The notes beneath the pieces are model-generated. The model worked only from the letters and a program-made list of their open reading frames with translations. It made no database searches and had not been told where the DNA came from. Both the position numbers and the translations under genes were made by a program. A stretch of DNA of 64,000 nucleotides from NCBI RefSeq assembly GCF_964204865.1, contig NC_135251.1:7998001-8062000 (forward strand), given 5' to 3'. Positions 5,162-64,000 of this stretch are shown one piece after another. The DNA is from Styela clava. Lineage: Eukaryota. How positions within the stretch are numbered: position 1 is the stretch's first letter; the number at the start of each line of letters is the position of its first letter.

Positions 5162-6512
5162 ATGATGTCTTATCAAAATGTAATCGCAAAAATTAATAAT
5201 AACACTGAAAAGTGCACTGACTTCTATGACTTTGCTGAATCTCATGGATATTTTGAGAGAAAACTAAATGTGAACGTAACTCCTCAATTGGAGGAAATTG
5301 ATTTTTATGGAGGTGAAAGAATAATTGAATATGATTATGTACCAAAGTCATCTAAACGACCGAAGCATCTAGAATGGGAAAGAGAAAGCGGGATCAGAAA
5401 AGAGACTCAACTGGATGAATTGTTTGACAACTTCAAACATGGTCATGTCTGTTTTGTGGGGCCCCCTGGATCGGGAAAGACAACACTCATGAAAGCAACA
5501 TCCAGAGATGTCATGCATGGAAAATATTTTCATAGAATTATCAAGATGGTTTCATACATAGAATGCAAACAATTTATGAGAAACAGTAAAGTAACCGCAG
5601 CGGAACTAATATTTAACAATCTCACAAAAGAAGAAAGAAGTCAAGCAATAGACATTGCAAAAACTCACCCAGAGGAAGTTTTGTTTTTGCTCGATGCCTT
5701 GGATACTTTCCAATATACTGTTGATGGAGTTTATGAAGTCATCGGCTTAGATGAGCCTGCATATCCTGAAGTAATAATGTGGAATTTTCTCTCTGGAAAA
5801 TTATTTCCTGGCTGTCGCATTATATCGTCCAGTCGTGAACATTCCATCAGAAATTTTTGGGGAGAAATTCGACCAAACAAGGTCATTGCACTTGCTGGAT
5901 TAACAATGAAGTCAATCAAAGAAATCATTTCTGGATATGAAGGAGATGAAGAGGCCGAGAAAATAATGGAATTTCTCAAGATTGAAGCTCCATTACTCTT
6001 GTTTCTGTGCACTACACCAGTGATGCTTGTTTACACATTGATAGCATTGAAATTCAAATCTGACTTCAAACCAAACACCATGAGTGGTATTATGATTGTG
6101 GTCATGCAAAGCATCTTACGATCACCCCACACTCACCAAGAGATTACTATGGAAGTGTTGGGCAAATTAAAAGATCTATCATACATTGGGACAATAGAAC
6201 GCCGAGTTCTATTTACAGAAGATGATTTTCGTCAAGTTCATCTAAAACCAGAAGAAGCAACCGATCTTGCAATCCTGGCTCCTGGAGGAATATACCGTAA
6301 AGTTTTTCAAGGAATCCACCTTCTTTACTTTCAACATCAAACTTTTCAAGAAATGCTCACATCATTCTATATTCTTGGACTGGATTTAAAAACGTTCAGG
6401 GAGTTTGTGGATGAACATCTTCATACGGGTTACTTTGTTTTCGTCAGAAGAATGATCTGTGGATTTTTATTAAATACCAGAGTTTATAAAGCAGCAGGAA
6501 TTTTACTTGAAG
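5162..6512 (+). CDS. NLR exon 1: NACHT NTPase with helical and winged-helix domains
   Basis: Walker A GPPGSGKT, Walker B VLFLLDALD, sensor-1 IISSSR, LCTTP (GxP-type) motif and WHD motif YFQHQTFQEML. Donor GAAG/GTATTG at 6513. Confidence 0.93.
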
Positions 6513-9500
6513 GTATTGTGATGTTTATTGTTTAACTTGGATTAAAATTCAAGCTGGTGCCATTTTTTTTATTCAAATCCGAGATTAGTTAGATATTGTC
6601 ACTTCAATAGGTATTGTTAAGTCACTTCAAAGTTTGATATATTACATAAGAGACCTTGTTCATTGTTTATCATCTACTTTGAAATAGTTTGAATTTTTTC
6701 AGATGTGAATATTGGTTTGTTTGAATTAATAACTAAACAGTACAATTGCTTAGCAGTTAAAGTATTAAACTTTTTAAGTGTATTGGCATTGTAGGTTGCT
6801 CATTTCAAGAAACAGTAATCTTATATGTAGCTTAACAGCATGAGTTTGTACAGAGCATTGTTCGGAGCCACATTTATTAATGCTGTAATTCTTGGCAATA
6901 GGGGCAAAAGTTTAGATGTTGCTATTATGTTCTATTGCAAAACAAAAAGTAGCCAAGTCTTATTATGACACATCAAGCATTATTATTGCTCATTTTACAC
7001 TGGATTTGAACTAAAGCTTTAAGCTAGGGGGGAATCTGAAGTGCAGTGACAAATTATTATTACCCAATACATTGATAGACAATGGCTAACTAGATTAAAC
7101 CTTCCAATCACTAGTTTAAAAAAGATGAAAGTTGATGTTATTTATATGTCAACATTACTGAATGGTAACTCATTATTCACTCATACGCAGGTATCATCAG
7201 TATAAATATATTTTTATATTCCCACAGAAATTACGGATCTTGAAGAAAAACGAGATATTTTCAAGAAAAGTCTGCAATCACAACTCAAAAAAATATCAGG
7301 CGGATCAGATCTTCTGGAAGTTTTCACTGCAATGAACGAAGCCAAGGATGGAATGAGTGACATTGTCAAATCATCTCTTAATGAAATTAGCATGACTGGT
7401 CATCCTCTCTCCATCAGCGATATTCATGTCATTGGATCAGTAGTTTCTTACTGCACATCACTAACATTGGATTTCACTAGATGTGATCTCAAGTCAGCCT
7501 CACTTCAGACTCTCGCATCTGGATTAAAAGGATCAAATGCGAAGGTAGAATTTCTAATATTAAATTCTCAAAAAAAAATTCATGTTTATGTTTTTACCTT
7601 AAATAAGGCTTTAGACTAGTAGCGTATATTTTGAGAGTTACTACAATATAGTTGAATTTCACCATATATTAATTATATGTTGAATTCTATATCAAAATAT
7701 TTTGGTTTGAAAGTGTTTAATGAATTGTCACACACAGAAAGTTGTGGTGGACCTGGTTTTAAACCTGAAATCTGTGGTCCGTGGTACAAACGCAATTAAT
7801 ATAGGTATATTTCTTATTTGGTAAATGCTTACTGACTACATGGTATGTGCAAAACAACATGGAGAAGATTTTTTAGCATTAATTTCTTTATGTTGTTTTA
7901 TTGTGTCTTGTCTTTGAACAAGACTCCAGGCACTGATCTTTAGCGAACTATGATTTACCGACGGCTATCGCTAACTGGTAGAAACGATAAATGTAAAAAA
8001 AAAATGTCCTTGTCTCTTTGCGTCATATTTTCCAATTCCTAATTTTGCATAAAGCATGCCAACACCGTTTTTGTGAATTTAGAAACGTCGAACCAGATAA
8101 GTAGGATAGGTAAATAATGTATTTTATAGAAATTTCTCGCGATATTGGGAAGAAATATATATTATTTTGACCACGTAGAAATGCTTTTATTGCCGATTTA
8201 TTCATGTGCTAGTATCAGTGTTTTAACCCCAAGCTGAGTTACGTAAATACTCAACACTGAGTATTCAAGAGATTGCCAATTTGCAGAGCTTTTAATTATC
8301 ATTTTATATGAAAGTAACACCGACACGATCTAAAATTAAAGACATGAAAATGTCAACCATCCGCTTCACAAATATCGCATCCCGGGGTCAGTAATGTTAA
8401 TATTGTCCGCTTAGAATTGGGACCGTAATTTACAAACTGCGGTTCAAATCCTACACAGAAGATAAAAATGAGAATAAAATTAATTTGTGTAGTGAATGCA
8501 CTCCTTAATAGTTGTCTCTAACATATTCGCCGATGTGAACTAACAATTCTGTCCGACATATAAAAACCAAACTACGATATCGGCCGTTGCGTGAGAATTA
8601 ATATTTATATAAAAAAGTGATTTAATATAATTTAACAACATTAATTGGAATATCGGCCGCTGAAAAGATCGCAGTGATCAAAACTTTACTGCAGCTTTCG
8701 ATTATGAATAAATTATGAAATAAAAATCGCCGCATTGTTACGGAGTTTTCAGTCTTCAAGTAGAATCCGAAAAAACAAATACTTATTGTCACGGTGATTG
8801 TTTCGGTGGCCGTCATCCAAATTAATGTTTAAAATGACAATACTCATTATTCGGTGTTGGTTGAAAATATTCGAATATCTCTAGTAAAAAAATACGATTT
8901 TACCTGTCACTAATCACGGCGCATGTAAATAATCATTGAATGGCAATAAAAAATCAACTTAATTAACAATAAATTTCAAGTAATTGTTTCACATTTAATG
9001 CATTTGATCGGCGCTACATGCGAGCATGTTGTTTGTAAATATAAGCCATGATGACTCTTCTGCAGGGGTGGGTAACATACCGCCCTCGGGCCGCGTCATG
9101 CCCGCAACGAGATTTTGACCAGCGCGCTGACTGTTTTCAACCACACTCTGTAATGTGGTCCGACGCATCATTCATGAAAGTTGCCTATCACTCTACTCTC
9201 ACCGCACTGTCAGTGCAAGATGGTGAAATAAACAATTGCCCTAGTGAACAAACAATTGCGTTAGCACACTTGTTAAACAAACAATATAAGGTCAAAGCAG
9301 AGAGCGTTGTAAACATTCCCCACTACTGTTATTGGTTATATTTAGATTCTAAATATAAATAGATTTTAGATTAGGATTTTTTTAGATTTAGATTTTTTAT
9401 ATTAAGTTTAATTAACCATGGAATACCCCAAGAAACGTGAAGTTGACACAGAGAGGGGTCGAGCATGTAACAAAGATTGGATACCGAAGTATTTTGAAAT

Positions 9501-12500
9501 AGGACTTGCAAACTCACTAAAAAACACCTTAAGTCAAAGAGAGGCGGGTTACACGTAACTGTGGAATTTGCTGTGAACGATCATGCATTTCAGTTTATTA
9601 AATGCATTTTTACGTCGTCGTGAATAGCACTTTTGGTGTAATGTTTTAATTTCACCATAACCCCCTCTTGGGAAAATCCTGGCTATATCATTCAAATATA
9701 ACCAACTATATATTACACTTCCTATTAATATCAGATTTGCTATACTTGTTATATGATCATTTCGTTCAACCAGTATTAGGTTTGCTTAATATGTGTTCAT
9801 GGTTTAAACAATTTACATTCCTTTACCCTCTGGAATGTTTCATTGGAGTCCCGCTCCATCAAAAAGGGGTCTGTCCATGCTTAATTTGTTGATGATTTTA
9901 CCATTTTAATTTAATTTTAAAATATTTTTTCGTTCTTTGTCCAAGGTTTAAAATTTTGCCATTCTAATTGAATATTGAGTGGCATTCCATTTTCCACAAT
10001 CGGCCCAACAAGATTTTAAAACAGTTTAAATATGATCTTAAATTGTTCTTTCATTATAGATCATGAAGTTGTGGCTGAATAAAAACACAAACATGGGAGT
10101 TGAAAGTTTAACATCAGTTGGACAAATACTTTCCAATCAATCCTGTGTTGAAGAGTTGGGCCTTGGCAACTGTAACTTGTCATCAGATCAACTACAAGCT
10201 TTCAAATCCTCGATAGGCAATAGAACAACGGTGAGTTACAATGGTCAATCCATAGTGAACTTTTCTTGAATTTATTGTATAGCACAGTCTATGGGTCACC
10301 TGAAAATCTTTTTGGGTCGCTTGTTTTAGAACCAGAAATTATTTCCAGTAAATTTTATTGTTTTTTTCATATTTGGTATTGTAATGTTTCTCAATAGTAA
10401 TTTTACATGTGGAAGGTATCACAGCGTTAAAACTTACTAGCAGCTATAAATAGTAAATGGCAGCAGCCAATAAATAGTAAGTAAAAATAATTGTTTTATT
10501 TTAATCATTTAAATCTGTGGCCATAAAAGCACTACATGCAGTTTAGTGTGTGAGAATATCCTTGGATCGCTTGGTTTTTCAAAATTTATTTTTTTTTAAA
10601 AAATTTAGTCACTTGAAAAAAAAAGATTGGGAGCCACTAGTATAGCAATCCCTGTAATTTACAGTTACCTCTGTCATGCAAAATGCGGAGTCAAATAAAA
10701 AATTATTTCAGCTGATTTGGAGTCAAGTCAATTAACTCTAAATTAATTTTTTCATTTATTTGATGATTTCGGTAAGTAGGGAGATAACATCTCATAACTG
10801 GAATATAATTGAACTTTTAAAGAATAATTTTTGGGGAAAAAGACTAAACTTAGGAATTCGGTGTAGATTTTGGGGGTGCTAAAGTTACAGGCACTTGTGT
10901 TATGGTTTTTATTATTTATTCAATAGTGTAGTGTTTTACTTTCTGCTGAGTACAAACAACAATATCCTTGATGGTTGTCTCATATAATCTCTGGTGGGCA
11001 ATGTTGGTTGGTTAGCTGCAAGGGTTATACTCTTGAATATTTGTCATGCATGAAACATCACACAATTGATCATAAGCATAAAAATAGGGTACTTTGAAAT
11101 CTATCAACCTAAAGTAATAATACCTTGAAATAGGCCATGTTAATATCAAAGTAAATATTTCAATATTTTTGTTCTGTTTTATGAGTATTAATAAATTCAT
11201 AATTGCTCCATCATTCATTTTCATGCAGTTGTTAACATGGGATTCAACTTTTGTGAATTTACATATTTTAATTCTGATATGTCTAGTTTTTTCAGATTTT
11301 GTTTTCAAATTCCACGGTATTGGCTATGGAATATTAATGGTATATTTTTCATCAAAAACTACTTTCAGTTTGAAAATGTTCATAATTTTTTATTTCTCAC
11401 TCATTAAAGAATCATTATGGATTTCCTGATTCATCAATTATTCTTGTCTCTTTATAGCTCATGAAGTTGTACCTATATGGAAACACAAACATGGGTGTTG
11501 AAGGTTTATTATCAGTTGGACAAATACTTTCCAGTCAATCCTGTGTTGAAGAGTTGGGCCTTGCCCATTGTAACTTGTCATCGGATCAACTACAAGCTTT
11601 CAAATCTTCAATTGGAAATAAAACAAAGGTGAGTTACAATGATCAATTTATAGTAAACTTTTCTTGAATTTATTGTACAGTACATTCTAAGGGTCACCTG
11701 AAATTCTTTTTTTTTTTTATTTATTTTTTGCAACACAAATATTTTTTAATAAAGTTCACTGTATTTTATCTTGGTATAGTAGTGCTGCTCAATAGTTATT
11801 TTATATGTGGAAGGTATCATAGCGTTAAAACTTAGCAGCAGCCATTTTGTTAAAATAAAACCATGCCACAATTTCAAAAAATTGCTTTTGGCAAACAAGT
11901 GAAACTTTCTTCACTAGTGCAACTTTGAATTAATTTCTGTTGAAATAAATAGTATGTAAAAATGATTGTTTTATTTTAGTCATTTATCTTTGTGGCCATT
12001 AAAAGCACTTAATGCCGTTTAGTATATAAGCATATAATTGGATCGCGGGGTTTTACAAAATTAATTTTTCTGAAATATTTGGTCGCTTGTGGAGAGGGTG
12101 GGAGCCACTACCACAGCAAATCATGTAATTTATAGTTACAACTGCCATACAAAATGTGGAGTTATATAAAAACTATTTGAGCTGATCCAGAGTCGAGTCT
12201 AAATTTTTCATTTATTTAAAGATTTGGGTAAATAGTAAGGTAACATCTCACTACTGAAATATAATTGAAGTTTTGAAGAATAATTTCATGGAAAAATAAT
12301 TAGCAATTCGGTGTAGGTAGAGAGTTAAAACTACAGGATATTTTTATGAATGCTAATTCCGATATTCCAATAGTGTGATATTCGAAAACTTTATTCGGTT
12401 TGGCCATCCCTGGTCACTCTCATGCAACATTTTTATTTTTATACTGACGTAGTGTTCTACCTTCTGCTGAAAACAAACAACAATTTTCTTGATAGTTGTC

Positions 12501-15500
12501 TAATATAATCTCTGGTGGGCAATGTTGGTTGGTTAGCTGCCAAGTTCATACTCAACTATAATAACAGACACAGATTTGAATAATTTTTTCGTCATGCATT
12601 AAACATCGCACAATTAAACAAAAGCATAAAATAGGGTACTCCGAGTAATAAACTTGAAATAGCCTGTGCTGATAACAAAGTAAATATTTTAATATTTTGT
12701 TCCGTCTTGTGCATATTAATGATGCCGTAATGGCTCAATTGGTCTTGTGCAGTTGTTGACATTTGTTAACAAGGGATTCGGCTATTCTGCATTTACAGAT
12801 TTTATTTCTGATTATCTATTTTGTAGTTGGATATTGTTTTAACGAGACATCTGTAGAATATTACTAGTATATTTTGCATAAAAAACTACTTTTACTTTAA
12901 AAATGCTCATAATTTTTCATTTCTCACTCAGTGAAAAACCATTTATATCTTTCGAGGTTTATCAATAACTCTTGTCTTTTTATAGCTCATTAATTTGTGG
13001 CTGAGTGGAAACACAAACATGGGAGTTGAAGCTTTATCATCAGTTGGACGAATACTTTTCAATCAATCCTGTGTTGAAGCCTTGTACCTTGCCAACTGTA
13101 ACTTGTCATCAGATCAACTACAAGCTCTCAAATCATCGTTGGGCAGCACAGAGGTATAACACAACAATAATTTTGTTTAAAAGGTCGGAGGAAATTGGAT
13201 TGCACTGTGAAATTATGGAAAACTTCTGAAATTTTAAATTTATCTTTTATTACACCTTGTGTTCGATGATTTGAACTTGTGCAATCTGGAATGGAAACAC
13301 AGTCAAATCTAATGCTTCAGATGCTAGGTCATCACACTCATGCATGTAAATTTATGATTCTCATGCTATCCTATCATCTTCAAAAGCTGATGTCTGTTTC
13401 AAGTGTTTATAAAAATAGAGAAAAAATAGATTAGAATTTGGAACAGAAGGTAATGATCAATAATAATAATTCTAAAAGGTACTTATTTCTAACATTGAGG
13501 GGTTGGAAGACAAAAGCATTCCTGTTTTTGAAATTGTAATTTACCTATGTTGCTCTGAGTTTGAAATAATTTTACAATTTTGTTTATTGATTCGAATTGC
13601 TATCACGATATGAAACACAATCGATTTGACCACAAAAAATGTCACTTGACTAAAACATTGAAATTTTTTATATATTGATTCTCACTCGATAATAACTGCC
13701 AACCTCTGGCACCAGGCTATATTTGAAGTTACAAAAGCGTGTTAGCTTTCAAAATGTGGATTTTGACCAAGTTTCACCCAATTAAAAATGAATTTCACTA
13801 TGTTGTGTATTAATGCCAATTGCTACCACTTCATTAAATGCAATGTTTTTGACCTACAACCCCAAGGCCATCCAGAGTTGGGTCAGCATTTTATGACGTA
13901 TTACTGTTGTCAACTTTATTACCGGTATATAAAAACATTATAAGATGCAAAAGAATCACTTTCATAATTTGTATGAACTACCGTATTAGAATAATTAGAT
14001 GGTTACCAGTCTGAGCCACTCAAATTTCTGAATAGAAAAAACTTGAAGCACTATAATTATGCTTGATCAGGAATTAAAAATTTTTTAAAAATATTTTCAA
14101 TGAAACTTTTTCACAGATATAGCTGAGTTTTTGGTTCAATTGACATCGGCTTCATCACAATTTCACCCAATGTGATTTTTGTATTAGATGGAAAAAACAA
14201 AACCCGACTTTCAAATATTCTGTATTTTAAACTATATTGATGGATAACAATTTTTCTTCATCAGTGTTCGCTATTAGTGCACTTTTTTGCGAAAACTGCG
14301 AGACATTTTCTCTATTTTTTTTTTTACTTTCAAGGCACCTTCACACTCATAATTTTCTTAAAGTGAACACTGCTTTTAATACTGTATTGAAATTATGAAT
14401 ATCATATTATATAGCGGCCTACAATAAAGTAGGATTTTCCAGAGTCAACATTATTATTTGAAACTTAAGTCTCAAATGGCAAATATATTCAGATTTTTTT
14501 GTCTTATAGTGAGCAAAGGCAGGTTAAAACTTATTTTTACTTTTGAAATTTATACCCGCAAGTTTGACTGTTTTGATATCATAACAATTTATCAATATTT
14601 TTGTTCTGTTTTATTGATTTTATAATTGTGCAAGTATTCGTTCTTATGCAGTTATTAGCATGTGATTCAACTATTCTGAATTTACAGATTTTAATTTTTA
14701 TATGTCTAGTTTTGTAGTTCAGATTTTGTTTTCAAATTCAACGGTATTGTTCGTGGCAGTGGTTCCCGACCATTATGGCTTGTGGCCCCCTTCCAGCGGC
14801 TCGTAGAACTCATGGCTATCCTGTTCATCATTCCAAAAAACTTGGATGTGTTCGAGTGTATTATGTATTTTCGACCTTCTATGGAATGCAAAAACAGACC
14901 ACAGGCTAGAAAGTCAAACTTTGTACTATTGGAAAGAGAAACTTGCAGGCTTTTTCTTTGGCAGAAACCCAAATTTGGCAATGTTGCTTCCTTGTCAAAT
15001 CTAACTCGCTAGGCAGCCAAGGCACTGAATGTAAACGTCTTTTACATGGAAAAGATTTTTTTGCACAGTGGATTTGGAGTTTGGATGAACGTAATGATTT
15101 ATTGTTTATCACATATGAGCAACGCAGGCATTGTGCACATTGCTTCAGGGCCCCCGTTAAGAACCACTGGTCTATGGAATATTCATGGTTTATTTTGCAT
15201 CAAAATTACTTTCAGTTTGAGAATGTTCATAATTTTTTTCTTTCTAATCCCTCAATGCACCATATCTAAATTTCTGGGTTCATCAATTATTCTTCTCTCT
15301 TCATAGATTATGAAGTTGTACCTGAGTGGAAACACAAACATGGGTGTTGAGGGTTTATTATCAGTTGGACAAATACTTTCCAATCAATCCTGTGTTGAAG
15401 AGTTGAGCCTTGACAACTGTAACCTGTCATCAGATCAACTACAGGCTTTCAAATCATCCTTGGGCATCACAAAGGTATATCACAATAATAATCACATGAT

Positions 15501-18500
15501 TAACGTATTTTAAAAAGGTTGGAAGAAAATTTGATTTTGATTTTGTAACAGATTAAGTTTCACACTTTCATAGCCAAAATTGGATTACATGGTGAAATTA
15601 ATGAAAAACCTCTACAATTTTAAATTTATCTTCTTTAATAAATTTTCAGGCCCTCTCATTTATTTGAAAATTTCTTTGAAATATATTATAACCAATTCTT
15701 ATGACCAATCGGTTCTGTTGAGTCTTGTCCGATGATTGTGTGAAATACCTAAAATTGTCCTATATTGTACGTAAATTACATTAATTTTTTTTTTCGATAA
15801 ACTCCCAAGTTTATTCAATTTTGAAAACTTTTTATTACATCTTAACATCTTAAGTAAAATTTGGAACAGAAGGTAAACAGATTTTAAAGAATAAACGATA
15901 AGTGCTAATAAATCTAAAATGATATTTATTTCCAACAGTACAGGTTTTATTTGTTCAATAACCACATTTATTTAATTTTCACGTGGTCAAATGTGGGATG
16001 TCCACTTGTATAAGCTTAAGTCACAGCTTATTACATTTTCAGTCACCTAAATGCTATTAACACCATAAATCATTTGACATTATCTACAATGAAAAGAGTA
16101 ATTCTGATATCATAAATGGTCGCACTTTTCACTTGTTTGTTAGTTAATCCCAATGAGACATATTAGGCCTTTGAGACAATAATTATTCATGCCTTTTCAC
16201 TGCAAACCTTGTGCAAATTTAACAATTAGTCTTTTGTACAGAATTTATAAATAACCTTTCAAATCAACCCTTGCCTTCTGGAACTCGGCAAGTTTTTTGA
16301 GGTCACCAGAGTCTGATAACCAAATTATAATTTTGACTATGTTGCTCTTACTTTTGTTCAATGATTACGAATGCTAACGATTTGTGAAATACAATTGATT
16401 TGACCACAAGAAAAGTCAAACAACTAAAACATTGAATTTTGATAACTGTTGTTCCTCATTTGATGAAAACGCACAATTTCTGACACCAGGCTCTGTTTCA
16501 ATGTTACAATGCTTTTCTGTGTAATAAGAATAATATGGGTTTGGCAAAACTAGGACGAATATGACTTTTATGTATTTTATCCATGCCATATTGATTTTTG
16601 TATTTGTTTATTTCAACAGATTGATCAGTTGTATCTGGGTGAAGATCGTATTGCAAACAATGAAGATATTGTTGCAGTTGCAAATCTGCTTCCTAATGTT
16701 ACAGAGAGTTTGTGGTTGGGAAGATGGAAAATAGCTGATGAAGATAAAGAAATATTACAGAATCAATTGGATGAAATTGGATCGGAGGTTTGAAATTCTT
16801 TTTGGGATATACAAAATATAAAATATGGGTCAGACATAAATCAATAATTTGTGTAGAAACTGAAAGTCTAAATTGTTCACGCTGAACTGAACACTTTAAA
16901 GTCCACCAAAGTATATGTTATTTCCATTCGTGTCATTTCAATTCTTTAAAGCAATTACCAAAATATTATATCATTGTGGTCAATTTGATTGTGTTGTACA
17001 TTAATGTTTAATGTTTGCTTTATTGGACACGTTTATTGGCCATAACGATCGTTTCAAAATTTTGTTGTTATTGTTATTTGTCTCCGTCTCCATTTTTAAA
17101 AAATCGCTTTTCTCTTCGAATACTGGACCAATTGCTTTGATATTTTCAGTGGTTAAAGATAAAATTTTCCTCCAGAAGGGTATTACTTTTTTTTCGCTAT
17201 GACGTCATCAAAATTATTGCCACTGGGTGGCGCTACGTGTCCATATATTTGAGCATAGCTCTCTTGTTTTAATTATGTTCATTTGTGTTTTGATAAAAAG
17301 AACAATTTCATAGATTCATTTGTGTTTCTGTTTCGTCAAGCAAAGTCTAAATTTGAAATGAATTGTATTTACTAATTTTTTGCAGTAATTATCATTTTAT
17401 TGAATTACCAAGCGTGGACTGTCAATTTAGTGAGTTATCAAAGAAAGCAAATTTTAAAAGTTTCTCAATAAATGTTAATGAGTAAATGACTGGAATTCCA
17501 GCATTGTCGTTGAAACCCTTCAGTGCTAATTTTGTATACAATTTATTCATTATAGAAACTAGAAATTTGCTTGGATAGATTCACAAAACTCAAAAGTCGA
17601 AGGATATCAGCAGCTACAATCAAAGTTTTTTCTAAACAACATCCAACCACAACTTCAAAAACAGAATTTGGTAAGTTATGAATATTTTTTCAAATTGAAT
17701 GGTTCTATGGCACCAATATCGCTGCTTGATAACAAACATGGGTTTTACTTTGCGTCTCCCTTCACCGTGGGATGCCATTTTTATGTTTTTTTTTCCTAGT
17801 TCTCATTCCAATCAAGTGAATTTACATTTTAGTGAAAAATAAACCACTGGCTCACATGATCACTACATCATGAATTTCTGCCCAATTGTTTAATATTTCC
17901 ATAGTTATCATTATTATATTATTCTTGTCATCAAGTAATTTTCATCGTTCTCGGAATGCTTATTGAATATACTTGCTACTGAAGCTGGCATATTATTCAA
18001 CGCTGTCTTGCAACATGTTAAATTTTGTCATTCTCTTAACAGATTTGGTATTTTTATCGTGTTATTGTCTATTGTACATATTGCGGTATCAAACAAAATT
18101 TTTGCTGTGATTAAATATACCGTAAATCTAGAATATGCAAAATTAATTTTATTAAAGATATAAAATAATTGCTTCCAAGTAGTTACACTTGGCTGTCGGA
18201 GCATAGAGCTTATAGTTACAGAATCTTAAATTTTTCTGATAATCGCTCACTACTCTTTGTATTTGGTTTTTGCTTGAAAAAGCCACTCACAGCTGTTTTA
18301 GATAACCCGGCTTTGCTGCTACTCACTACAATTTTATGTTTAATTTTGTTTTTGAATGAAATGGCCAGAAATAATATTGAGGTCACAGCTTTTATTTAAA
18401 ATAAAATATCTATTTTTAGCTTTGCCTAAAATTGAAAATGTTTCATCTCAAAGAAGTGGATCCGACATTCTTTTGACTTGGAATGAAGTATCTGACGGCA

Positions 18501-21500
18501 ACGTACTATACAACGTAGAAATCTTCTGTGATGATGTGAAACTTGAAGGGACTCACACTACAGAGGTTCCTCAGTATAGAATGGAGTCACCTACACTTGG
18601 TAAAAAATATATTTTCCAAGTGTGGGCCAAAGATGAATTGGGAAACTCTAGCATCAAAACACAGTCAAAGAATGTTATCAAATGTAAGTTATGGCCATTA
18701 ATCATTAGGTAATGTAGCAACCTTATAATTCAAATAGTTACTTATTGATATCGATCAGTAAGTATGTTCATAGGTATTTGTCTGTCTGTCTGTTAGATCA
18801 TTTTCGTATGTTACACGATATCTCACGAAAACGAGGTTGAATCTTCTCCATTTTGCATGTGCATTTATCATATCTCGGACCAGAAGCCTATTGATTTTTG
18901 ATGAATCATGTCAAATAATCAGCGAGTTATTAGTTAATTAGTGATGGGACATGCAGTGTTGCAATTGAGTCAGAGCGAAGGATACAAGCCGCTAGATCAA
19001 TAAGTCGGCGGTCTCCGTGCGCTATCTCGTTTGTCCGTTAGACACTTTCGTATGTTACGCGATATCTCTCAAAAGGGATGTTGAATCTAGTCCAAATTTT
19101 GCATGTGCATTCATCATATCTCGGAACAATAGCATATTGATTTTGGATGGATTATGTCAGATAATTAGCGCGGTAATAATTAATTAGTGATGGGACACGT
19201 GGTGTTGCTATTGAATCAGAGCGAAACAATCAAAATCGCAGTTTCTGTTTTGGCGGATCCCTTAACCTTCGTCGCTGCGAACGATTGTGTGCGTAACATT
19301 GCCCTGTCTGCAATTGCGAGAATAATCATTGTGAAATCGTACTCCGTCAAAATTGTCAAGAAAAATATTGTACATGAGGAAGATCGATAAGTCGGCGGTC
19401 TCCAATCGCTATCTAGTTTATTGTTTTAATAAATAGTCAGTGAGTGTATCTGCATGGTGGCGGCCCATCATCATTATTAGAAAAATATTAGGCATTTTAT
19501 TTTTTAGACGACTTATCGGCATAAAATCAGTGGTTCAAAATGGCCTCACATTTTTTCGCAATGAAAATGGTTTACATCCATTGACCAAGGCACAGTATTT
19601 TTATTCTATCATTCTTGGTGGTTCAAGAATTGGTTACTGACATTCAACATTACTATGTCAAACTGTGATGTGAAATAATTATGCAGAAACTACTACTTTA
19701 CTGGCTCCTAAACACCACCCCTTTACCTTAATTGCAATACATGAAGGTATATTGTGCTCATATTGTGTATATTGGTCATACAATCAATCTAGATTTATGA
19801 GGCCAAATCTTTTCTTTATTCCTAAACATGGAAGTTGCTCAATACCAGATTGAACTGGGAAAAAACATAATTGAAAATTCTAAAACAATACACAAGGAAA
19901 TTACTCAACTCATGGTAACAAATATTTTGTCGCATTTCTAGTTGCTGAGCCTGCTTTGTCTAAGTACTCATTTCCTACTTTACATAACTTTGGAACAACC
20001 TGTTAAAATTCATTTTTTGTTGCATTATAAAACAAATCTATTTTTTAGTGGTGAACGTTGAAGTTGCCGGCGGATCCATGAGACTGAACGAATGCAAAGT
20101 CACGTTTCCTGGTGGAACTTTCAACAAACAAACAAAGGTCTGGATGTCGGTTGGAATTGACAATTCACTGTGCCCAGAAGGATACATTGGTATCACACCA
20201 GTTTTCGATATCAGTGCAGATTCCGAATTCCTCAAAGATGCGATCGTGCAAATCCAGTCATGGTGTGTCGGTCTAGAGAAAGACAAAATTGACATATTAC
20301 ATTTCTCAAGTAAAACTGATTGGAATATTATTAAACCTCGCCGAATCACTGGGGATAACAGCATAGAATTCCGATGCAGAAAGTTCAGCCCAGTTATGGC
20401 CTTCATCAGGTGGTTGCTGTTTGGAACAGTGGAGCTTCTTATGGAACACCGTCTTTATATTTTAAACAAAAACAAATTTCATTTTGCATTTTTCACATGT
20501 GGTGAGACTGTTCAGAACACTGTCAGACATTATTATAAAGACCTGGGTGCACAACTTGCTCCTTTTCATCTTCCTCAGATTCTCTTACAAATTGGAGACA
20601 GAGTTCGCATGAAACTCCAAATTGACCGCGGACCAGAAAATTTGCATTTCGATTTTCCTGATGGCCATACTTTCCTGGTAGACAAACAATTCCTAAGAAA
20701 GCAAAGAAATGAATACACGGTTCAGCTTTTCCCTGTCCGCGACCAATATCCCCAAAGTAACATCAGATACAAGATGGTTAAGGAAGGCAATGAACCGGAA
20801 ATTTGCAATCGTGATTTTGATTTCCCAGTGGAACGAATAGGTGAGTAATTCAGGGCTCTTGCTCTCGCCTCATGCAGTTTTACTATGTTGTTCAAGTTGT
20901 CATTCGACCACTCAACATGATGCAGGTATTCATTGTTAAAACGAGGCTTCCTGCCATAAAAAAAACTTTCTAGTTTGGCTTATTTTGTTTAGTTTCTAAT
21001 TCTGGAAACTTGTGTTGCCCAATCAACATTACTTTCGAAGTTGAAATAAAAATGAATATGATTCTAATGTGTATCTCATACTGTTTAGATATGCCAGGAC
21101 AACAAACTATCAATTTCTATGGAGATGTTCGTGTTGCAGGGAACATGAATATGAATGGCGACCGCCAACAAGCTTTACAAGATGTGAGTAAATGCAATAA
21201 ATACGTAAATAAATTATTTCTGAGAAACAGCTGGCAAAATTTCAATTTTAAACAAATCTAGTTCTATTCCTTCGTTATAATTGTTTGTGTTTTTCTTTAA
21301 AGCTATGTGTATGAAGTTATAATATTATTTTGAATAAGTTGTAATATTACCAAATTGTCCATTTTTTACACTTTCTCCTGTTATATGCACAAAATGATAA
21401 TATCACCATGAAAATAATCTAACAAAAATAAATTTATCAAATATAATATAAATAAATATATATAATATGAATATAAGCAGTGGTGGGATTCAGCCGGTTT

Positions 21501-21922
21501 GCACCGGTTGTTTAGAACCATCTCACAGAATTTTATAAGATCAGCGTACCGGTTAGCATTAATCAGTTTATTTGCTAAAAAATATGACTTTTTGAAACAG
21601 AACCGGCTGAAAAATATGACTTTTGTGATGGAACCGACCGACAAAAAATTTGAATCCCACCACTGAATATAAGATAATATACAACTCAATCTCATACTAT
21701 AAATATTCAATCATTTAATTTGACTAACAAAATATTATGCTGAAAGTGACAACTGTTTTTTATATTAAGGAACAAATCGAACAGAGAGAAGCAGAGCAGC
21801 AAAGACAGGCAGATGAAAACAGGGTCCGTGTTCCAGGATTGGCTCCCCAAATTCTATTCTTGTTCCTAGCTGTTTTTCTCCACTTTTTGTTGAGGTGGCT
21901 CACACCCGAAATAACCTTATAA
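5162..21922 (+). CDS. NLR-family receptor, NACHT-LRR-FN3-FIIND(ZU5-UPA)-RHIM-like-TM, ~1310 aa, 12 coding exons (5162-6512, 7228-7544, 10060-10230, 11458-11628, 12986-13153, 15307-15474, 16620-16787, 17556-17670, 18420-18683, 20049-20840, 21089-21183, 21770-21922)
   Basis: Every exon is flanked by AG/GT. Phases chain without a stop (1,0,0,0,0,0,0,1,1,1,0). Summed length is 3933 nt, or 1310 aa plus stop. An in-frame TGA at 5144-5146 lies upstream of ATG 5162. Joining all exons into one transcript is inferred from phase compatibility, not from RNA data. Confidence 0.8.
7228..7544 (+). CDS. NLR exon 2: HD2-LRR transition and first LRR
   Basis: Acceptor cccacag, phase 1 start. Encodes ...LSISDIHVIGSVVSYCTSLTLDFTRCDLKSASLQTLASGLK. 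Donor AAG/GTAGAA. Confidence 0.85.
10060..10230 (+). CDS. NLR LRR exon A (171 nt, two RI-like LRRs, phase 0-0)
   Basis: IMKLWLNKNTNMGVESLTSVGQILSNQSCVEELGLGNCNLSSDQLQAFKSSIGNRTT, flanked by ttatag and gtgagt. Confidence 0.9.
11458..11628 (+). CDS. NLR LRR exon B (171 nt, phase 0-0)
   Basis: LMKLYLYGNTNMGVEGLLSVGQILSSQSCVEELGLAHCNLSSDQLQAFKSSIGNKTK, flanked by ttatag and gtgagt. Confidence 0.9.
12986..13153 (+). CDS. NLR LRR exon C (168 nt, phase 0-0; the ORF track shows the wrong frame here)
   Basis: LINLWLSGNTNMGVEALSSVGRILFNQSCVEALYLANCNLSSDQLQALKSSLGSTE, flanked by ttatag and gtataa. Confidence 0.88.
14757..15169. mobile_element. hAT (Charlie-like) element inserted in the intron upstream of LRR exon D
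   Basis: Ends CAGTGGTTCCCGACC / GTTAAGAACCACTG. Absent from the paralogous intron (empty site ggtattggctatggaat near 11316). Degenerate TSD. Confidence 0.8.
15307..15474 (+). CDS. NLR LRR exon D (168 nt, phase 0-0)
   Basis: IMKLYLSGNTNMGVEGLLSVGQILSNQSCVEELSLDNCNLSSDQLQAFKSSLGITK, flanked by tcatag and gtatat. Confidence 0.9.
16620..16787 (+). CDS. NLR terminal/capping LRR exon (168 nt, phase 0-0)
   Basis: IDQLYLGEDRIANNEDIVAVANLLPNVTESLWLGRWKIADEDKEILQNQLDEIGSE, flanked by tcaacag and gtttga. Not in the ORF track. Confidence 0.8.
17556..17670 (+). CDS. NLR linker exon (basic, Thr/Ser-rich)
   Basis: KLEICLDRFTKLKSRRISAATIKVFSKQHPTTTSKTEF, flanked by ttatag and G/gtaagt. Phase 0 to 1 bridges the LRR and FN3 exons. 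Confidence 0.7.
18420..18683 (+). CDS. NLR fibronectin type III domain exon (phase 1-1)
   Basis: P..V.....SDILLTW......LYNVE......YRMESPTLGKKYIFQVWA....GNS shows the FN3 W, Y and L..GxxYxFxVxA pattern. Confidence 0.85.
18736..19420 (+). mobile_element. Two head-to-tail Helentron/DINE-1-like copies in the FN3-FIIND intron
   Basis: Same family as 262-575. Units are roughly 18736-19030 and 19031-19420, each ending taagtcggcggtctc... Confidence 0.7.
20049..20840 (+). CDS. NLR FIIND exon (ZU5 followed by UPA-like domain; phase 1-1)
   Basis: ZU5 signature GGSMRL..CKVTFPGG...ITPVFDI....F.K.A.VQI, then ILHF...KPRRI...KFSP, then about 150 aa of beta-rich sequence. Confidence 0.8.
21089..21183 (+). 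CDS. NLR mini-exon encoding a G/N/Q-rich RHIM/amyloid-like motif
   Basis: DMPGQQTINFYGDVRVAGNMNMNGDRQQALQD, flanked by tttag and gtgagt, phase 1 to 0. The exon is well supported; the motif call is inference. Confidence 0.7.
21478..21665. mobile_element. hAT MITE in the last NLR intron
   Basis: TIRs CAGTGGTGGGATTCA / TGAATCCCACCACTG with a perfect 8-bp TSD AATATAAG. Confidence 0.93.
21770..21922 (+). CDS. NLR last exon: short charged helix plus C-terminal hydrophobic (tail-anchor-like) segment
   Basis: EQIEQREAEQQRQADENRVRVPGLAPQILFLFLAVFLHFLLRWLTPEITL*, after acceptor tattaag. Confidence 0.75.
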   Translation, partial: EQIEQREAEQQRQADENRVRVPGLAPQILFLFLAVFLHFLLRWLTPEITL

Positions 21923-25836: not shown

Positions 25837-27393
25837 CAGTGGCGGCGCGTCAATAGGGCCAACCGGGGCAATGCCCCGGTTGTTTTTTCGGTATAATAAA
25901 AAATATTCGAAAAATACCTCAATATCGGTTGCACAGACTGTCTACACTAGCCATATTCTCCCGACATGGTTCATTTTTCGCTCGCAAAGCCTTCGCCGAA
26001 CGTCGTCGCGGCGACGCCGATTCTGCCCCGGTTGCTCATTGTATATCGTATTCTCTTTTTTATCTTCCACTCGCCGCGTTTGTCTCGTTTGTTTTCTGTT
26101 TCTTTTACTAAATCATCGGGGCCGATCGGGGCTAGCCCCGAAATTATGACGACATAATGCCGACGTTTCTTACAACAACGTGTTGACATATTCACGCATT
26201 CCTTCACGTTCGTTGGTTGCTTGAAGAGTTGATAGTTTCCTCGCCTTCGTTTTTCTCGCTTTTTTCTCCACAATATTCTATCACGTGGATGTATTATAAG
26301 GCTAATGGATGGAGCGTCTGTGCAGTCGTGTATTTCAGACTTCTGCGATGCTGTATCTCGTATCCGGGAAACAATAAAATACGACGACACATGGAGTGCT
26401 TCTTTACGTCGCTGGCAAACAACGCAGCGTTTGATTTTGTCTGCATAGGAATGCTGTGACATTCTGGTGAATCAAATAGGCGATCGTCTGCGCACTGAAC
26501 ACCTTGCCGCGTTCTCTTTGATGAACTCCAAAAATTTTTCAAAATTTGCACGTCAATTTCCCATCCATTTGTTGGCTACTGTCTCCAAATTTTACCCCAT
26601 GATGAACGTGGGTAAATTGGAAAATGAATTGCGATGTATATACACCAATCAAACTTTTTTGAACATCACATCAACTTGCGCGCTCTATGGGTTCCTCATA
26701 GATAACACTCTAGTAACTACCTTTGCGGCGTCTGCAAAATTTCTGGACATCATCTTGACGACGCCTATTTCTTCCGCCGACGCAGAGCGAACATTCAGCA
26801 CGCTGAAGCGTATTAAAACGTATCTCAGAAACACAATGAAGCAAGATAGATTAAATTCCTTGGCTGTTTTATCCATTCACAGAGACGTTATTTCTGAGAT
26901 GCATGACTTTAATCAGCGCGTTATTGAGCATTTTGCTTCCAAGAAACCGCGGCGTGTTGCATATATGTTCAAGCAGTAGAAGTCTAGCAGCATATATATA
27001 TATGAGTGAGCGACGCATGTCCTTATCTTTGCATTAAATTTCCTTTCTTCATAGTAACGTTTTAAACCTTATTTTAGGTTTTGTCTGCTTTCCCGAAGTT
27101 TCTGTTAATATGTCATTGTATTTATCTGGGTAAATATTGCCTTTCCTTTTGAAAGAGGTTTCAAAATAAACTATGTCCATATTTATTAATCCCTTGACTT
27201 GGACCGGTTTTAAAGACACTTTCTTATCGTTAAAAATTGTCTCTTTTGCCGATTGGTTGTTACCGATGGAATGGTTTTTATACTCATAAAATGATGGGAG
27301 AACTTACAGCGTTCATCCTGTCCCCGTAGATGGGGGTGACTTGGTCCCGCAGTAGCTTGCCCCGGTTGTCAAAATGACCACGCGCCGCCACTG
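25837..27393 (+). mobile_element. Internally deleted hAT DNA transposon (ZMYM1-like transposase type)
   Basis: TIRs CAGTGGCGGCGCGT / ACGCGCCGCCACTG, subterminal GCCCCGG repeats, imperfect flanking repeat ggc(c)aacgag. Confidence 0.9.
26440..26979 (+). pseudogene. hAT transposase C-terminal dimerisation domain remnant
   Basis: TPISSADAERTFSTLKRIKTYLRNTMKQDRLNSLAVLSIH. An in-frame TAG lies just upstream of ECCDILVNQ and no N-terminal transposase is present. Confidence 0.88.
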
Positions 27394-29476: not shown

Positions 29477-32400
29477 AGAATGGACTTGTGGAAACATCGG
29501 TGGAATTAGGGGAACAGGCTGTATTACTGTTAAATAAGAAAGATATTTATGACTGCCGTACTAAATGACTGGAACATTCAGGCCTACTGCCCTGGAATTT
29601 GTCAAAACCAATCGGGACTGTCCCGGCTAACCGGGATTATTATTGCTACCTTGGAAATTAGTTGAAAATAACTTTCAGTTTGTGCTCAGCTCGTTCCATA
29701 ACTTCGATCAATTGCACAAAATCAGCTCACTAAGGAATATTTTTCGATGCCTTTCGCCGTCTTGGTGTTATGTAGTTATTTCTGGTCGAAAAATCAAAAG
29801 GAGTGGAAAAGGCAAAGATGAAAACAAATCATATTATTTGATATCAGTCAGAATATAACTGCCTTCTATTATCTTTGATATACATCCGAGTGGTCGACGG
29901 ATGACCTGTGATTGCTTGCCTTAATTTGATAAATGTTTCCCGGCCTTTTCCTCGACCGCAGAACAAGTCTTATACAAATACAATTTATTCCCATAACCTG
30001 ATAACGCAGAACAAAATATGAGATTTTGAAAATCCGGAAAAAGAAGACAATTAAGAATAAAATATAATTAACGTAAACGATTAGAAACGATCTTCAACCA
30101 AAATGAAACAAAACATGAACTCTGGCTACTCCAGAGGGGGATTTACGTTTTGGAAAACTGAAAATGCCCCTAAATGATCGATCGTTTTCGACAGCGCCAT
30201 AAGCTATTTGGAGCAAAAACACCTTTATGTTGGTATTTATCTTTCGGTCTTCGACGGAATTGTGAGTTTGTTGTTAAAAACGAGTTATTATATTATAATT
30301 ATCAGTGACGAGGTGATAAAGATAATAAAGGAGTAAATGCACAACCAAAGTGTTTTGATTGAAGAGCGGCATTGTAAAATACTAATAATAAAACGAAAGA
30401 AAACACCATAATTTTTGTTTCAGTAGACCCGCGACGGAATAAAAATGCGTTTTATCATGGCGATTATTCATTCGCGACCAAAATTTGGTGCCAAAAAGTG
30501 TTGGGTTGCCTTTGAAAACTTTACCGTTTGCCGGGAAATACCAATCGAAACAAAATGTAATCGGAAAAATTGTCACGAATTTTCATGGTCGCGGCATTTT
30601 GGGGTAGTGATACTTTTTATATTTTTATTAAACGAAACAGCAGGTTACATTGCACACGTTTAGATAATAAAGCAATACATATTACACATGCCCATATCGA
30701 CCATGAATTGGGTACTTTGCGCAATTGCACTCTTCCGAGATTTTAACACAGACTCTGGAATTTTTCCAACGGCATCTCAAAGTTGACAAATTCCAAGGTC
30801 GCAAAAATCCGAATCCAATCTATTTATAATCGGGTGGTTGATCGTGTGTTTTATGTCCGCAGAATGCCGTAGTTTTTTTTAGAATAGTGGTTATTTTATT
30901 TTACGGTTTGTCGACGCAAAGTCGAGTTACGATGAACAAGTTTATTTGAAAGGCTATTGAACGCTTCTTTAGAAGCCGTTGCGAGAGAAATTTTGATTCC
31001 CATTTTGGAACCCCCTCCTTTAAAAAGCCCTGACGAGCACCGAGAATCGGCGTTAAATAAGAAAATTTTGGTGAAATATCGAGCATATAGAACTGAAAAA
31101 CAAAATGAAGGTAATATAGCGTCCTTCTACTGACTTCTTCGGTCTTCGGACTGGTAATTAAAGGATAGAAAGTGGTTCGCCGATTATCAGTCTACTCTCC
31201 TGGGGTAAATATAAAGAATGGACTTGTGGAAACATCGGTGGAGTTAGGGGAACAGGCTGTATTACTGTTAAATAAGAAAGATATTTATGACTGCCGTACT
31301 AAATGACTGGAACATTTAGGCCTACTGCCCTGGAATTTGTCAAAACCAATCGGGACTGTCCCGGCTAACCGGGATTATTATTGCTACCTTGGAAATTAGT
31401 TGAAAATAACTTTCAGTTTGTGCTCAGCTCGTTCCATAACTTCGATCAATTGCACAAAATCAGCTCACTAAGGAATATTTTTCGATGCCTTTCGCCGTCT
31501 TGGTGTTATGTAGTTATTTCTGGTCGAAAAATCAAAAGGAGTGGAAAAGGCAAAGATGAAAACAAATCATATTATTTGATATCAGTCAGAATATAACTGC
31601 CTTCTATTATCTTTGATATACATCCGAGTGGTCGGCGGATGACCTGTGATTGCTTGTCTTAATTTGATAAATGTTTCCCGGCCTTTTCCTCGACCGCAGA
31701 ACAAGTCTTATACAAATACAATTTATCCCCATATCCTGATAACGCAGAACAAAATATGAGATTTTGAAAATCCGGAAAAAGAAGACAATTAAGAATAAAA
31801 TATAATTAACGTAAACGATTAGAAACGATCTTCAACCAAAATGAAACAAAACATGAACTCTGGCTACTCCAGAGGGGGATTTACGTTTTGGAAAACTGAA
31901 AATGCCCCTAAATGATCGATCGTTTTCGACAGCGCCATAAGCTATTTGGAGCAAAAACACCTTTATGTTGGTATTTATCTTTCGGTCTTCGACGGAATTG
32001 TGAGTTTGTTGTTAAAAACGAGTTATTATATTATAATTATCAGTGACGAGGTGATAAAGATAATAAAGGAGTAAATGCACAACCAAAGTGTTTTGATTGA
32101 AGAGCGGCATTGTAAAATACTAATAATAAAATGAAAGAAAACACTATAATTTTTGTTTCAGTAGACCCGCGACAGAATAAAAATGCGTTTTATCATGGCG
32201 ATTATTCATTTGCGACCAAAATTTGGTGCCAAAAAGTGTTGGGTTGCCTTTGAAAACTTTACCGTTTACCGGGAAATACCAATCGAAACAAAATGTAATC
32301 GGAAAAATTGTCACGAATTTTCATGGTCGCGGCATTTTGGGGTAGTGATACTTTTTATATTTTTATTAAACGAAACAGCAGGTTACATTGCACACGTTTA

Positions 32401-32941
32401 GATAATAAAGCAATACATATTACACATGCCCATATCGACCATGAATTGAGTACTTTGCGCAATTGTACTCTTCCGAGATTTTAACACAGACTCTGGAATT
32501 TTTCCAACGGCATCTCAAATTCCAAGGTCGCTAAAATCCGAATCCAATCTATTTATTATCGGGTGGCTGATCGTGTGTTCTATGTCCGCAGAATGCCGTA
32601 GTTTTTTTAGAATAGTGGTTATTTTATTTTACGGTATGTCGACGCAAATTCGAGTTACGATGAACAAGTTTATTTGAAAGGCTATTGAACGCCTCTTTAG
32701 AAGCCGTTGCGAGAGAAATTTTGATTCCCATTTTGGAACCCCTTCCTTTAAAAAGTCCTGACGAGCACCGAGAAATCGGCGTTAAATAAGAAAACTTCGG
32801 TGAAATATCGAGCATATAGAACTGAAAAACAAAATGAAGGTAATATAGTCTCCTTCTACTGACTTCTTCGGTCTGCGGACTGGTAAGTAAAGGATATAAA
32901 GTAGTTCGCCGATTATCAGTCCACTCTCCCGGGGTAAATAT
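29477..32941. repeat. 1.74-kb tandem duplication (29477-31214 and 31215-32941)
   Basis: Period 1738. Identical spurious ORFs at 29643/31381 and near-identical ones at 30445/32183. Confidence 0.97.
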
Positions 32942-34532: not shown

Positions 34533-35413
34533 GAATCCTCTAAAATTACTGAACTCGTTATGCAGGGAAAAATTTAATTAAACTAGAAAATTGAATGAAA
34601 TAAGGAGACGATCGAAGGTATTCCCATTTAAATACACATTCTGACATTCCATTTCACAATGATTTATGCCTGATAACAAGTTAAGTTCAAGATTTAAAAT
34701 ATATTGCAAGTATTTGTCTTGTTATTCCATTCAATTTTGTAATAGTATAAGTTTATTTTGACTCCATAATCAGCATAACTGTCAATAAAATGATTGATAG
34801 AAACAAATAAATGCAAACTGATTGTGAAATCAGGGGTGCAAACAATACCTTAGGTGAGGTTTAAAACGTACAGAATATAAATTAGAAGGTATTGCTAAGG
34901 AGTGGTACATGTTCACTCACTTAATAACAAATAAATAGAAAATTGATTACTGGATTATGAAATCAGGACAACAAACCTCAGATAAGGTTTTAAACATACA
35001 TAACATAGAATGGAGAAAAACTGATCGTTTATTGTTGTTTCGTTTTATACCAGAGTGACCGAAATAAAATTGATTGATTGAACTCACTCACCCAAAATAA
35101 TTATAACATTTCACACACAGAGATATTATGAAGTAGGAACGCATCTTCGCAGAACATGATCCACTGGCACAAAAGATTAGAAGAAGGATAAGTAGTTGTC
35201 CTGACAGAAATTCATATGAGTTAGTATGCAACAAATGAATAGTAAACTTCACTCTGCTACAACATCCTTGCATTTCACATTGCAGTTATGAAAATGTTAT
35301 ATTATGTCTGTTTAAATATTGGTATATATATTGATATTACGATTGTTGTAAAACCCATCGAATGAGGAAACTATTATCTTTTCATTACCCAGATTGTAAT
35401 TTAATCTAACAGT

Positions 35414-58915: not shown

Positions 58916-64000
<5,085 letters not shown>

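Follow-up and report, generated by a model that had tools for sequence, protein, structure and literature searches.

A NACHT-LRR gene with tandem repeat exons

We analyzed a stretch of 64,000 nucleotides from the Styela clava genome (contig NC_135251.1, positions 7,998,001 to 8,062,000, referred to here as the window), in which an earlier note had described four near-identical leucine-rich repeat (LRR) exons that vary at predicted concave-face residues and had proposed diversifying selection on a recognition surface. The four belong, as repeat modules, to an intact NACHT-LRR gene, which runs on the forward strand from position 5162 to position 21922 in 12 exons with GT-AG introns and an uninterrupted frame of 1,310 amino acids. 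Having NACHT plus LRR, the encoded protein is a NOD-like receptor (NLR). Beyond the earlier note, we describe the gene family to which it belongs, likely recombination between the genes, and a C-terminal ZU5-UPA module. The features of the gene are as follows.

5162..6512, + strand: exon 1 (first coding), about 90 amino acids without a recognized domain, then NACHT (Walker A, Walker B) and helical domains
7228..7544, + strand: exon B, encoding a helical hairpin together with the first two LRR-like units, strand positions also variable among paralogues
10041..15492, + strand: exon-plus-intron tandem units (self-BLAST), flanking intron copies 75-84% identical
10060..10230, + strand: LRR exon 1, 171 nt, phase 0-0, two LRR units, 57 amino acids, AG/GT ends
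11458..11628, + strand: LRR exon 2, 171 nt, phase 0-0, 57 amino acids, AG/GT ends
12986..13153, + strand: LRR exon 3, 168 nt, phase 0-0, 56 amino acids, AG/GT ends
15307..15474, + strand: LRR exon 4, 168 nt, phase 0-0, 56 amino acids, AG/GT ends
16620..16787, + strand: cap (terminal) LRR exon, phase 0-0, single per gene where seen, strand positions also variable
17556..17670, + strand: linker exon, resembling the linker of database protein P0021
18420..18683, + strand: beta-domain exon, 88 amino acids, weak Pfam matches only (Tissue_fac, E 0.06)
20049..20840, + strand: ZU5-UPA exon, with Phe-Ser at 20384-20389 (end of ZU5) and His at 20300-20302, from AlphaFold2, Foldseek, VIA-align and conservation
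21089..21183, + strand: tail exon, a short Asn/Gly-rich hydrophobic motif without a Pfam match
21770..21922, + strand: last coding exon, closing with a hydrophobic stretch and then the stop codon

Because the introns flanking the repeat exons are in part 75-84% identical, we conclude that exon-plus-intron units were duplicated in tandem. The NACHT domain matches Pfam PF05729 above the cut-off (E 1.5e-20), while the Pfam LRR signal is weak; hits to PYRIN and SAM_SMF both fall on the LRR repeats and were rejected as spurious. Pfam returned no family up to E 5 for the first 90 amino acids, and neither an N-terminal death domain nor a CARD for the window protein. Database models of paralogues begin at the same methionine, and an unannotated upstream exon is possible. 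Inspection of the model, without use of a predictor, showed neither a signal peptide nor a membrane segment at the N terminus. From its residue pattern, we take the 88-amino-acid beta domain to be FN3-like. The hydrophobic C terminus, a candidate tail anchor, is shared with P0002 and P0017. The closest database proteins are named Styela clava and are mostly annotated as "uncharacterized"; one of them, P0001, matches the neighboring gene exon for exon.

Sequencing run X6, which we guess to be RNA, matches closely over the exons, differing at 2 of 460 nt in NACHT and at 4 of 166 nt in LRR exon 2; its depth is zero in 7 of 30 bins. A contig from a run guessed to be RNA matches LRR exon 2, and among 15 of the 98 joints from such a run there is no exon-exon joint. 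The pattern of X6 matches is suggestive of expression of the window gene, not proof of it.

Variation among the four exons and its place on the LRR fold

The strand sequences quoted in the earlier note are exact, and the exons are real, with proper splice ends and symmetric phase. Its description of them as near-identical was somewhat strong, as they share 83-88% nucleotide and 72-85% amino acid identity over 54 codons. From the LRR pattern xxLxLxx(N/C) we fixed a set of ten codons (2, 3, 5, 7, 8, 31, 32, 34, 36, and 37), referred to here as x codons. Of the 54 positions, 18 are variable: the x positions vary as reported (9 of 10), but the scaffold, said to be almost invariant, varies as well (9 of the 44 other positions). 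The variation is concentrated on the x positions beyond chance (permutation p 1e-4; 5e-4 with buried consensus positions left out of the null).

An AlphaFold2 model of the six-exon repeat region of a neighboring paralogue (predicted local distance difference test [pLDDT] 94.3) forms a strand-helix solenoid, and Foldseek matches it to ribonuclease inhibitor (E 3.6e-13) and to NLRP LRRs. DSSP assigns strands at approximately codons 1-5 and 30-35 of each exon, which therefore places the x positions on the strands and following loops. Random scatter of the variable sites over the structure was thus not found; they lie on the predicted beta-strands and the loops just after them. In standard LRR geometry, such strand positions face the concave side of the solenoid. 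That the x positions would do so here follows from this geometry and from the model of a paralogue, a reservation to be set against reading them as a binding face.

The gene family and its exon repertoire

Searching the S. clava genome with 200 amino acids of NACHT, with 150 of 178 candidates scored, returned at least 59 matches at 79% identity or more, none of which (0/59) contains a stop in the searched 200 amino acids. Forty-nine of these paralogues share one chromosome arm on contig C2 (0.02-8.1 Mb, mostly ~100 kb apart); 7 lie on C6, 2 on C18, and 1 on a small contig. Searches with scaffold motifs located 166 LRR exon positions in the genome. The 1.42 Mb of sequence fetched held 170 motif matches, and after 2 without an acceptor were dropped, 168 intact exons remained, 158 of them distinct. 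These are in phase 0-0, measure 168 nt (146 exons) or 171 nt (22 exons), and carry 153 distinct combinations of the ten x residues. Each gene has 1-6 LRR repeat exons; these counts are minima, the genes having been fetched in part, and they leave out broken or half exons seen by tblastn.

Several further features of the array were observed. Five array genes on C2 (2060841, 2584152, 3299031, 4186937, and 5851482) retain just the 3' portion of their first LRR exon, soon after exon B, and an insertion interrupts an exon near C2 2445700; being symmetric in phase, such partial or split exons could be skipped. Distant gene pairs on C2 (0.27/3.39, 2.15/4.03, 3.81/4.56, and 1.84/2.25 Mb) are 99.2-99.98% identical over 10-16 kb, one pair lying on opposite strands; very recent duplication, conversion, or false duplication could each account for them. 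At C2 4.862-4.891 Mb (loci L311-L314), directly upstream of an array NACHT exon, about 30 kb consists of mosaic blocks in up to 5-6 copies at 85-97% identity, in which no repeated small exon was found. An isolated FN3-like exon (near 4.924 Mb) and a transposase-like frame of 692 amino acids (near 4.932 Mb) lie in the same interval. Scans for open reading frames, proteins, and tRNAs found no partner gene in an 86-kb stretch between two array genes, although multi-exon genes unlike the search proteins would escape them. P0003, P0007, and P0008 have LRR sets without a close match among the recovered exons; with C6 fetched only in part, we did not count these as allelic turnover.

Positive selection at strand codons

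Across the 158 distinct exons, the ratio of nonsynonymous to synonymous differences per site (pN/pS) is 1.97 at x codons (bootstrap over codons, 1.57-2.62) and 0.41 at the other 44 codons. The result does not depend on the exons that suggested it: in the 154 exons held out, the ratios are 1.95 and 0.42, so a ratio of 1 or less is not what the x codons show. Resampling one exon per gene gave 1.67-2.17 at x codons, and the 13 exons at 7.9-8.1 Mb gave 2.7 (1.55-5.3). In 41 disjoint pairs of exons at most 8 nt apart, x codons show 140 nonsynonymous and 7 synonymous differences (ratio 4.7, Fisher p 3e-7), while the scaffold of the same pairs has a pN/pS of 1.1. Under the GY codon model, omega is 7.3 at x codons (9.5 on a tree built without them) and 0.52 in the scaffold, and fixing omega at 1 is worse by 79 log units (2dlnL 158). 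Because recombination inflates codon-model omega, we rely on the counts.

Within the main array, x-site pN is 0.43, whereas pS is 0.07 in scaffold and NACHT alike; in the NACHT domains of 44 array genes pN/pS is 0.33, with one variable site in 450. The window gene is an outlier of the array and less homogenized, with a scaffold pS of 0.21, and its exons differ from the nearest others by 13-20 nt. In exon B and the cap exon, too, the sites that vary are mostly at strand positions, and codon 10, directly after the conserved Asn, is variable too. No stops occur at x codons, versus 56 expected under independent codon positions. Database protein P0014, presumed from its 2 differences in 201 NACHT-side residues to be an allele of the neighboring gene at 8.10 Mb, differs from that gene at 5 of 30 x positions and, elsewhere in the LRRs, at 3 of 132 positions (p 0.006). 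Reads of run X7 are too thin to resolve alleles, and paralogues cross-map at 92%.

Several points weigh against selection. The four window exons alone give a pN/pS of 2.2 (bootstrap 0.59-9.6), or 3.0 (0.87-11.9) with kappa 3, neither significant, and the 13 exons from C6 are borderline at 1.4 (0.86-2.23). The inflation of omega has been mentioned, and recovering exons by scaffold motifs lowers scaffold diversity, though it leaves the x-codon ratio unaffected. Nonetheless, we are close to certain that the x codons are under positive selection: the diversifying selection proposed from the four exons, which do not show it by themselves, is borne out at the level of the family once paralogues are included. 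Scaffold constancy, for its part, owes much to recent homogenization (close-pair pN/pS 1.1, omega 0.5).

Probable recombination of LRR exons between genes

Among 126 distinct main-array exons, strand 1 varies almost independently of strand 2 (Mantel r 0.05), linkage decays within ~10-30 nt (p <0.001), and the four-gamete test is failed by 74% of informative site pairs. A single 30-nt haplotype of strand 1 can be combined with as many as 4 haplotypes of strand 2, and a single strand-2 haplotype with as many as 5 of strand 1; in the 26 pairs sharing a strand 1 at least 4 nt from consensus, strand 2 differs by 5.9 nt, versus 6.7 nt in random pairs. Exons differ by 17.7 nt within a gene and by 17.5 nt between genes, and 6.5 of 128 exons have their nearest neighbor in their own gene, versus 2.5 expected at random. 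Since the two strands are not linked and exons are no more alike within a gene than between genes, conversion between genes is likely, and the long haplotypes shared with unrelated partners suggest that it passes through the constant exon middle.

Two considerations count against this: reciprocal four-haplotype quartets were searched for and none was found, and recurrent change at fast sites can mimic part of the unlinked-strand signal. Judging from the haplotype patterns as a whole, LRR exons very probably recombine between genes. The ZU5-UPA exon ranges from 41% to 89% identity with the window copy and NACHT only from 79% to 88%, and C-terminal parts therefore appear to have been exchanged separately.

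A C-terminal ZU5-UPA module with a putative self-cleavage site

The ZU5-UPA exon has 63 genomic matches at 41% identity or more, among 87 matches from 105 candidates. Sequence searches of the exon against the PDB gave nothing meaningful, and Pfam reported nothing for the window copy and a weak ZU5 in 6 of 32 homologues. The ESM Atlas pointed to ZU5/UPA/FIIND clusters (0.96-0.93), below its recognition threshold, which we took as a lead only. The AlphaFold2 model (pLDDT 90.9) aligns by VIA-align with UNC5b (Z 18.9, root-mean-square deviation [rmsd] 2.9, 252 residues aligned) and CARD8 (Z 16.1, rmsd 4.0, 237 residues); Foldseek matches it to rat NLRP1 (E 1.7e-7), and it also matches ankyrin ZU5-UPA. 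By the range ends of the alignment, model residues 1-112 pair with NLRP1 residues 1100-1212, the last of which is the Phe ahead of the nucleophile of NLRP1, Ser1213 (PMC3210808). A Phe-Ser pair at residues 112-113 of the model sits, in this superposition, at the position of the NLRP1 self-cleavage site; of 32 aligned homologues, 30 keep the Phe and 30 the Ser. At an offset in sequence of 28 residues upstream of the Phe, a His is kept in 26 of 32 homologues, and in CARD8, His270 lies 26 residues before Phe296 (PMC3210808).

Other observations argue against cleavage. In close paralogues, the Phe is preceded by Lys or Glu, not by the Ser or His of SFS/HFS; in CARD8, changing the Ser at this position to Ala has only a small effect (PMC3210808). 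UNC5b, the best fold match, has Leu at the Phe position (PMC3210808), and therefore the fold alone shows no cleavage. Pfam FIIND gave no hit on ZU5-UPA, and P0009 (C18, 14.55-14.57 Mb), which joins NACHT-LRR-ZU5-UPA-caspase in one model, has Phe-Gly instead of Phe-Ser. With the model and the conserved residues on one side and these points on the other, we lean slightly toward self-cleavage at Phe-Ser.

No CARD follows the UPA; the ~80 amino acids after it have no Pfam death-fold hit. They include the tail motif, rich in Ile/Val, Asn, and Gly, which is seen in the 1.5-kb flank at 14 of 30 loci and which, by eye, we presume to be RHIM-like. Against this, Pfam RHIM gave no hit up to E 5 for the tail or for nine relatives, and we regard an amyloid-type tail as a tentative and rather doubtful proposal. 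In P0009 and P0024, a caspase stands behind the same ZU5-UPA module (Pfam, database models), and P0024 (C2) keeps Phe-Ser ahead of it.

The module also occurs in other settings. In the database models P0020 and P0025 (C1 near 30.97 Mb), a weak Death-like N terminus and the FN3-like-ZU5-UPA module with its tail motif are combined with two further domains, a protein kinase and a 2-5A ribonuclease; in these proteins, P0020 being without NACHT, an effector resembling RNase L/IRE1 carries a CARD8-like front. Fusion partners of this ZU5-UPA type in further proteins include other NACHT clades, Death, BTB-Kelch, FN3 arrays, GBP, and caspase (P0028, P0032, P0034, P0037, P0044, P0070, P0097, P0108, and P0111), and several of these fusions end in similar Asn/Gly-rich motifs.

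Interpretation and alternatives

We propose that the strand positions of this arrayed NLR are likely the variable binding face of a cytosolic immune sensor, predicted to signal via a self-cleaved C-terminal piece. Recognition of immune ligands as such we hold to be probable with good confidence, and the "recognition surface" of the earlier note is likewise something we infer rather than observe. The proposed mechanism starts from two things that the data show: symmetric exons, which let genes gain or lose two-LRR units in frame, and x codons at which dN stands well over dS while scaffold and NACHT stand under it. Conversion between paralogues via the near-invariant exon middle would remix strand 1 and strand 2 and keep the scaffold alike, and new surfaces would be selected for binding microbial or parasite molecules. 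ZU5-UPA is predicted to cleave itself at Phe-Ser, and the candidate effector after UPA would be the short RHIM-like motif in the window gene and a caspase in relatives. By analogy with NLRP1, ligand-driven NACHT oligomerization or N-terminal loss might then free or cluster UPA plus tail (PMC11760013).

A more far-reaching version is speculative, and we think it unlikely to hold in full. It supposes a combinatorial receptor library in an invertebrate chordate, in which half-exon conversion among ~50 genes, and perhaps exon skipping, would place new LRR faces on a fixed scaffold, each receptor being coupled to a self-cleaving module similar to that of NLRP1, from which an exchangeable effector (an amyloid-forming motif or a caspase) is released. 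If true, the array would amount to a family of inflammasome-type sensors that has antibody-like diversity of its surfaces and arose independently of vertebrate NLRP1. For a somatic form of such a library there is no support here, and it seems far-fetched.

The chief competing explanation is that the surface diversifies for self/non-self or gamete recognition, for guarding variable host proteins, or for escape from LRR-binding pathogen inhibitors. Such diversification would leave the same sequence signature, the presumed allele P0014 differs mainly at x sites, and fungal NLR-like genes work in allorecognition (PMC1805685, PMC13449251). Against it, inspection of the protein by eye, without a predictor, showed no signal peptide or N-terminal membrane segment, and dozens of recombining paralogues would suit a broad sensor repertoire more than a one-locus self marker. 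We consider this explanation improbable next to the binding face of an immune sensor.

The case for neutrality, in which x positions are merely unconstrained and a conversion-uniform scaffold exaggerates the contrast, is largely refuted and very unlikely. It can point to weak purifying selection on the scaffold (close-pair pN/pS 1.1; omega 0.5), to a main-array pS that is higher at x codons than in the scaffold (0.19 vs 0.07), and to the four window exons, which do not reject neutrality. Yet the ratio exceeds 1 inside the x codons in tree-free counts (140 vs 7 in 41 disjoint pairs, p 3e-7), x-site pN (0.43) is greater than the aligned upstream intron distance (0.18), and other exposed helix positions stay constant. 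A targeted mutator of the deaminase or retroelement type, editing strand codons, would explain why change is so local, with linkage gone within ~10 nt; it is highly implausible, however, as minor alleles at x codons are of 12 kinds and rich in transversions (45, versus 27 transitions), and third positions are spared and stops absent, as selection on protein predicts. Finally, inflation or scrambling of the array through assembly error, which would account for the distant pairs 99.2-99.98% identical over 10-16 kb and for one NACHT exactly duplicated on a small contig, is barely credible given that 158 of 168 exons are distinct, that the repeat, with additional x variants, is also found in proteins from other accession series, and that short-read contigs of run X1, possibly the source sample and so not independent, match the window introns and exon ends with 0-3 differences.

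Other features of the window

Outside the NLR gene, the window holds CCDC96-like (35405-37030) and CEP104-like (42555-45302) sequences, each one long open frame, and a short-chain dehydrogenase (50232-51281). Exons at 62792-63998 presumably belong to a phosphofructokinase-2/bisphosphatase. A hAT transposase fragment lies at 26449-26976, and a 1.74-kb tandem duplication with 97.5% identity at 29477-32941.

Comparison with known systems

The separate ingredients of this family are already known from plant NLRs, brown-algal ROCO proteins, and NLRP1. Highly variable NLRs of plants occur in clusters, undergo gene conversion, and have hypervariable LRR surface residues that are taken as direct ligand binders, on an NB-ARC protein with an N-terminal CC or TIR domain. 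The Styela genes resemble them in clustering, in their hypervariable predicted LRR surface, and in likely conversion, and differ in having NACHT, no N-terminal effector that we found, and a C-terminal ZU5-UPA.

The LRR-GTPases of the brown-algal ROCO family have tandem symmetric LRR exons in variable number, with positive selection at concave strand positions (PMC11378527), and the Styela genes share symmetric tandem repeat exons of variable number and selection at the corresponding x positions. In ROCO genes, however, a 72-bp phase-2 exon encodes one LRR and the NTPase is ROC-COR (PMC11378527), whereas the Styela exon of 168/171 nt in phase 0 encodes two LRRs behind a NACHT, and its halves appear to recombine across ~50 genes.

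Zebrafish NLR-B30.2 genes, the best-studied NLR expansion in animals, likewise form an array on one chromosome arm, with 0-6 internal LRR units, a fixed terminal LRR, and conversion accompanied by positive selection (PMC4852459). There, it is B30.2 that is under selection, while the LRRs reportedly show no particular variability (PMC4852459), in contrast to the hypervariable LRR strands of Styela. Ascidian NLRC proteins, like the window protein as far as Pfam shows, are NACHT-LRR without an N-terminal death-fold domain; the survey that describes them concerns Ciona and, in its available portions, lists FIIND for vertebrates only and does not mention Styela (PMC11508797). NACHT-ZU5 architectures, with function unassigned, are mentioned for early-branching animals (PMC12909245). 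The open-access literature yielded no account of a Styela NACHT-LRR-ZU5-UPA family, supplements and subscription papers lying outside this scope; the family is not described in the accessible portions of PMC8195603 and PMC9505182, and in the main text of the S. clava genome paper (PMC7540406), whose supplement on family expansions lies outside the same scope, the terms NLR, NACHT, NOD-like, and leucine-rich occur 0 times.

The closest parallel in domain order is NLRP1/CARD8, whose FIIND is a ZU5-UPA: both have the order NACHT-LRR-ZU5-UPA-effector, Phe-Ser at the aligned ZU5 end, and a conserved upstream His that may be equivalent (PMC3210808, PMC11760013). In the Styela proteins, by contrast, no CARD or PYD was found, and the tail position is taken by a RHIM-like motif, by a caspase, or by a second block of LRRs; they further have an extra FN3-like domain, Lys or Glu before Phe, only 6-17% identity, and dozens of copies with variable LRRs. 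Since the CARD and the SFS motif are absent, we do not class the family as NLRP1 and liken the two only in predicted output; the Styela NACHT-LRR-ZU5-UPA is probably an independent fusion.

These comparisons bear on whether large invertebrate NLR expansions give ligand-specific recognition. Where the zebrafish LRRs are reportedly not especially variable, the Styela exons offer a constant scaffold with ten freely varying positions each, which makes swaps easy to design, and a predicted cleavage readout. They also place the NACHT-LRR-ZU5-UPA order, in the survey portions cited above listed for vertebrates only, in the sister group of vertebrates, with effectors other than CARD.

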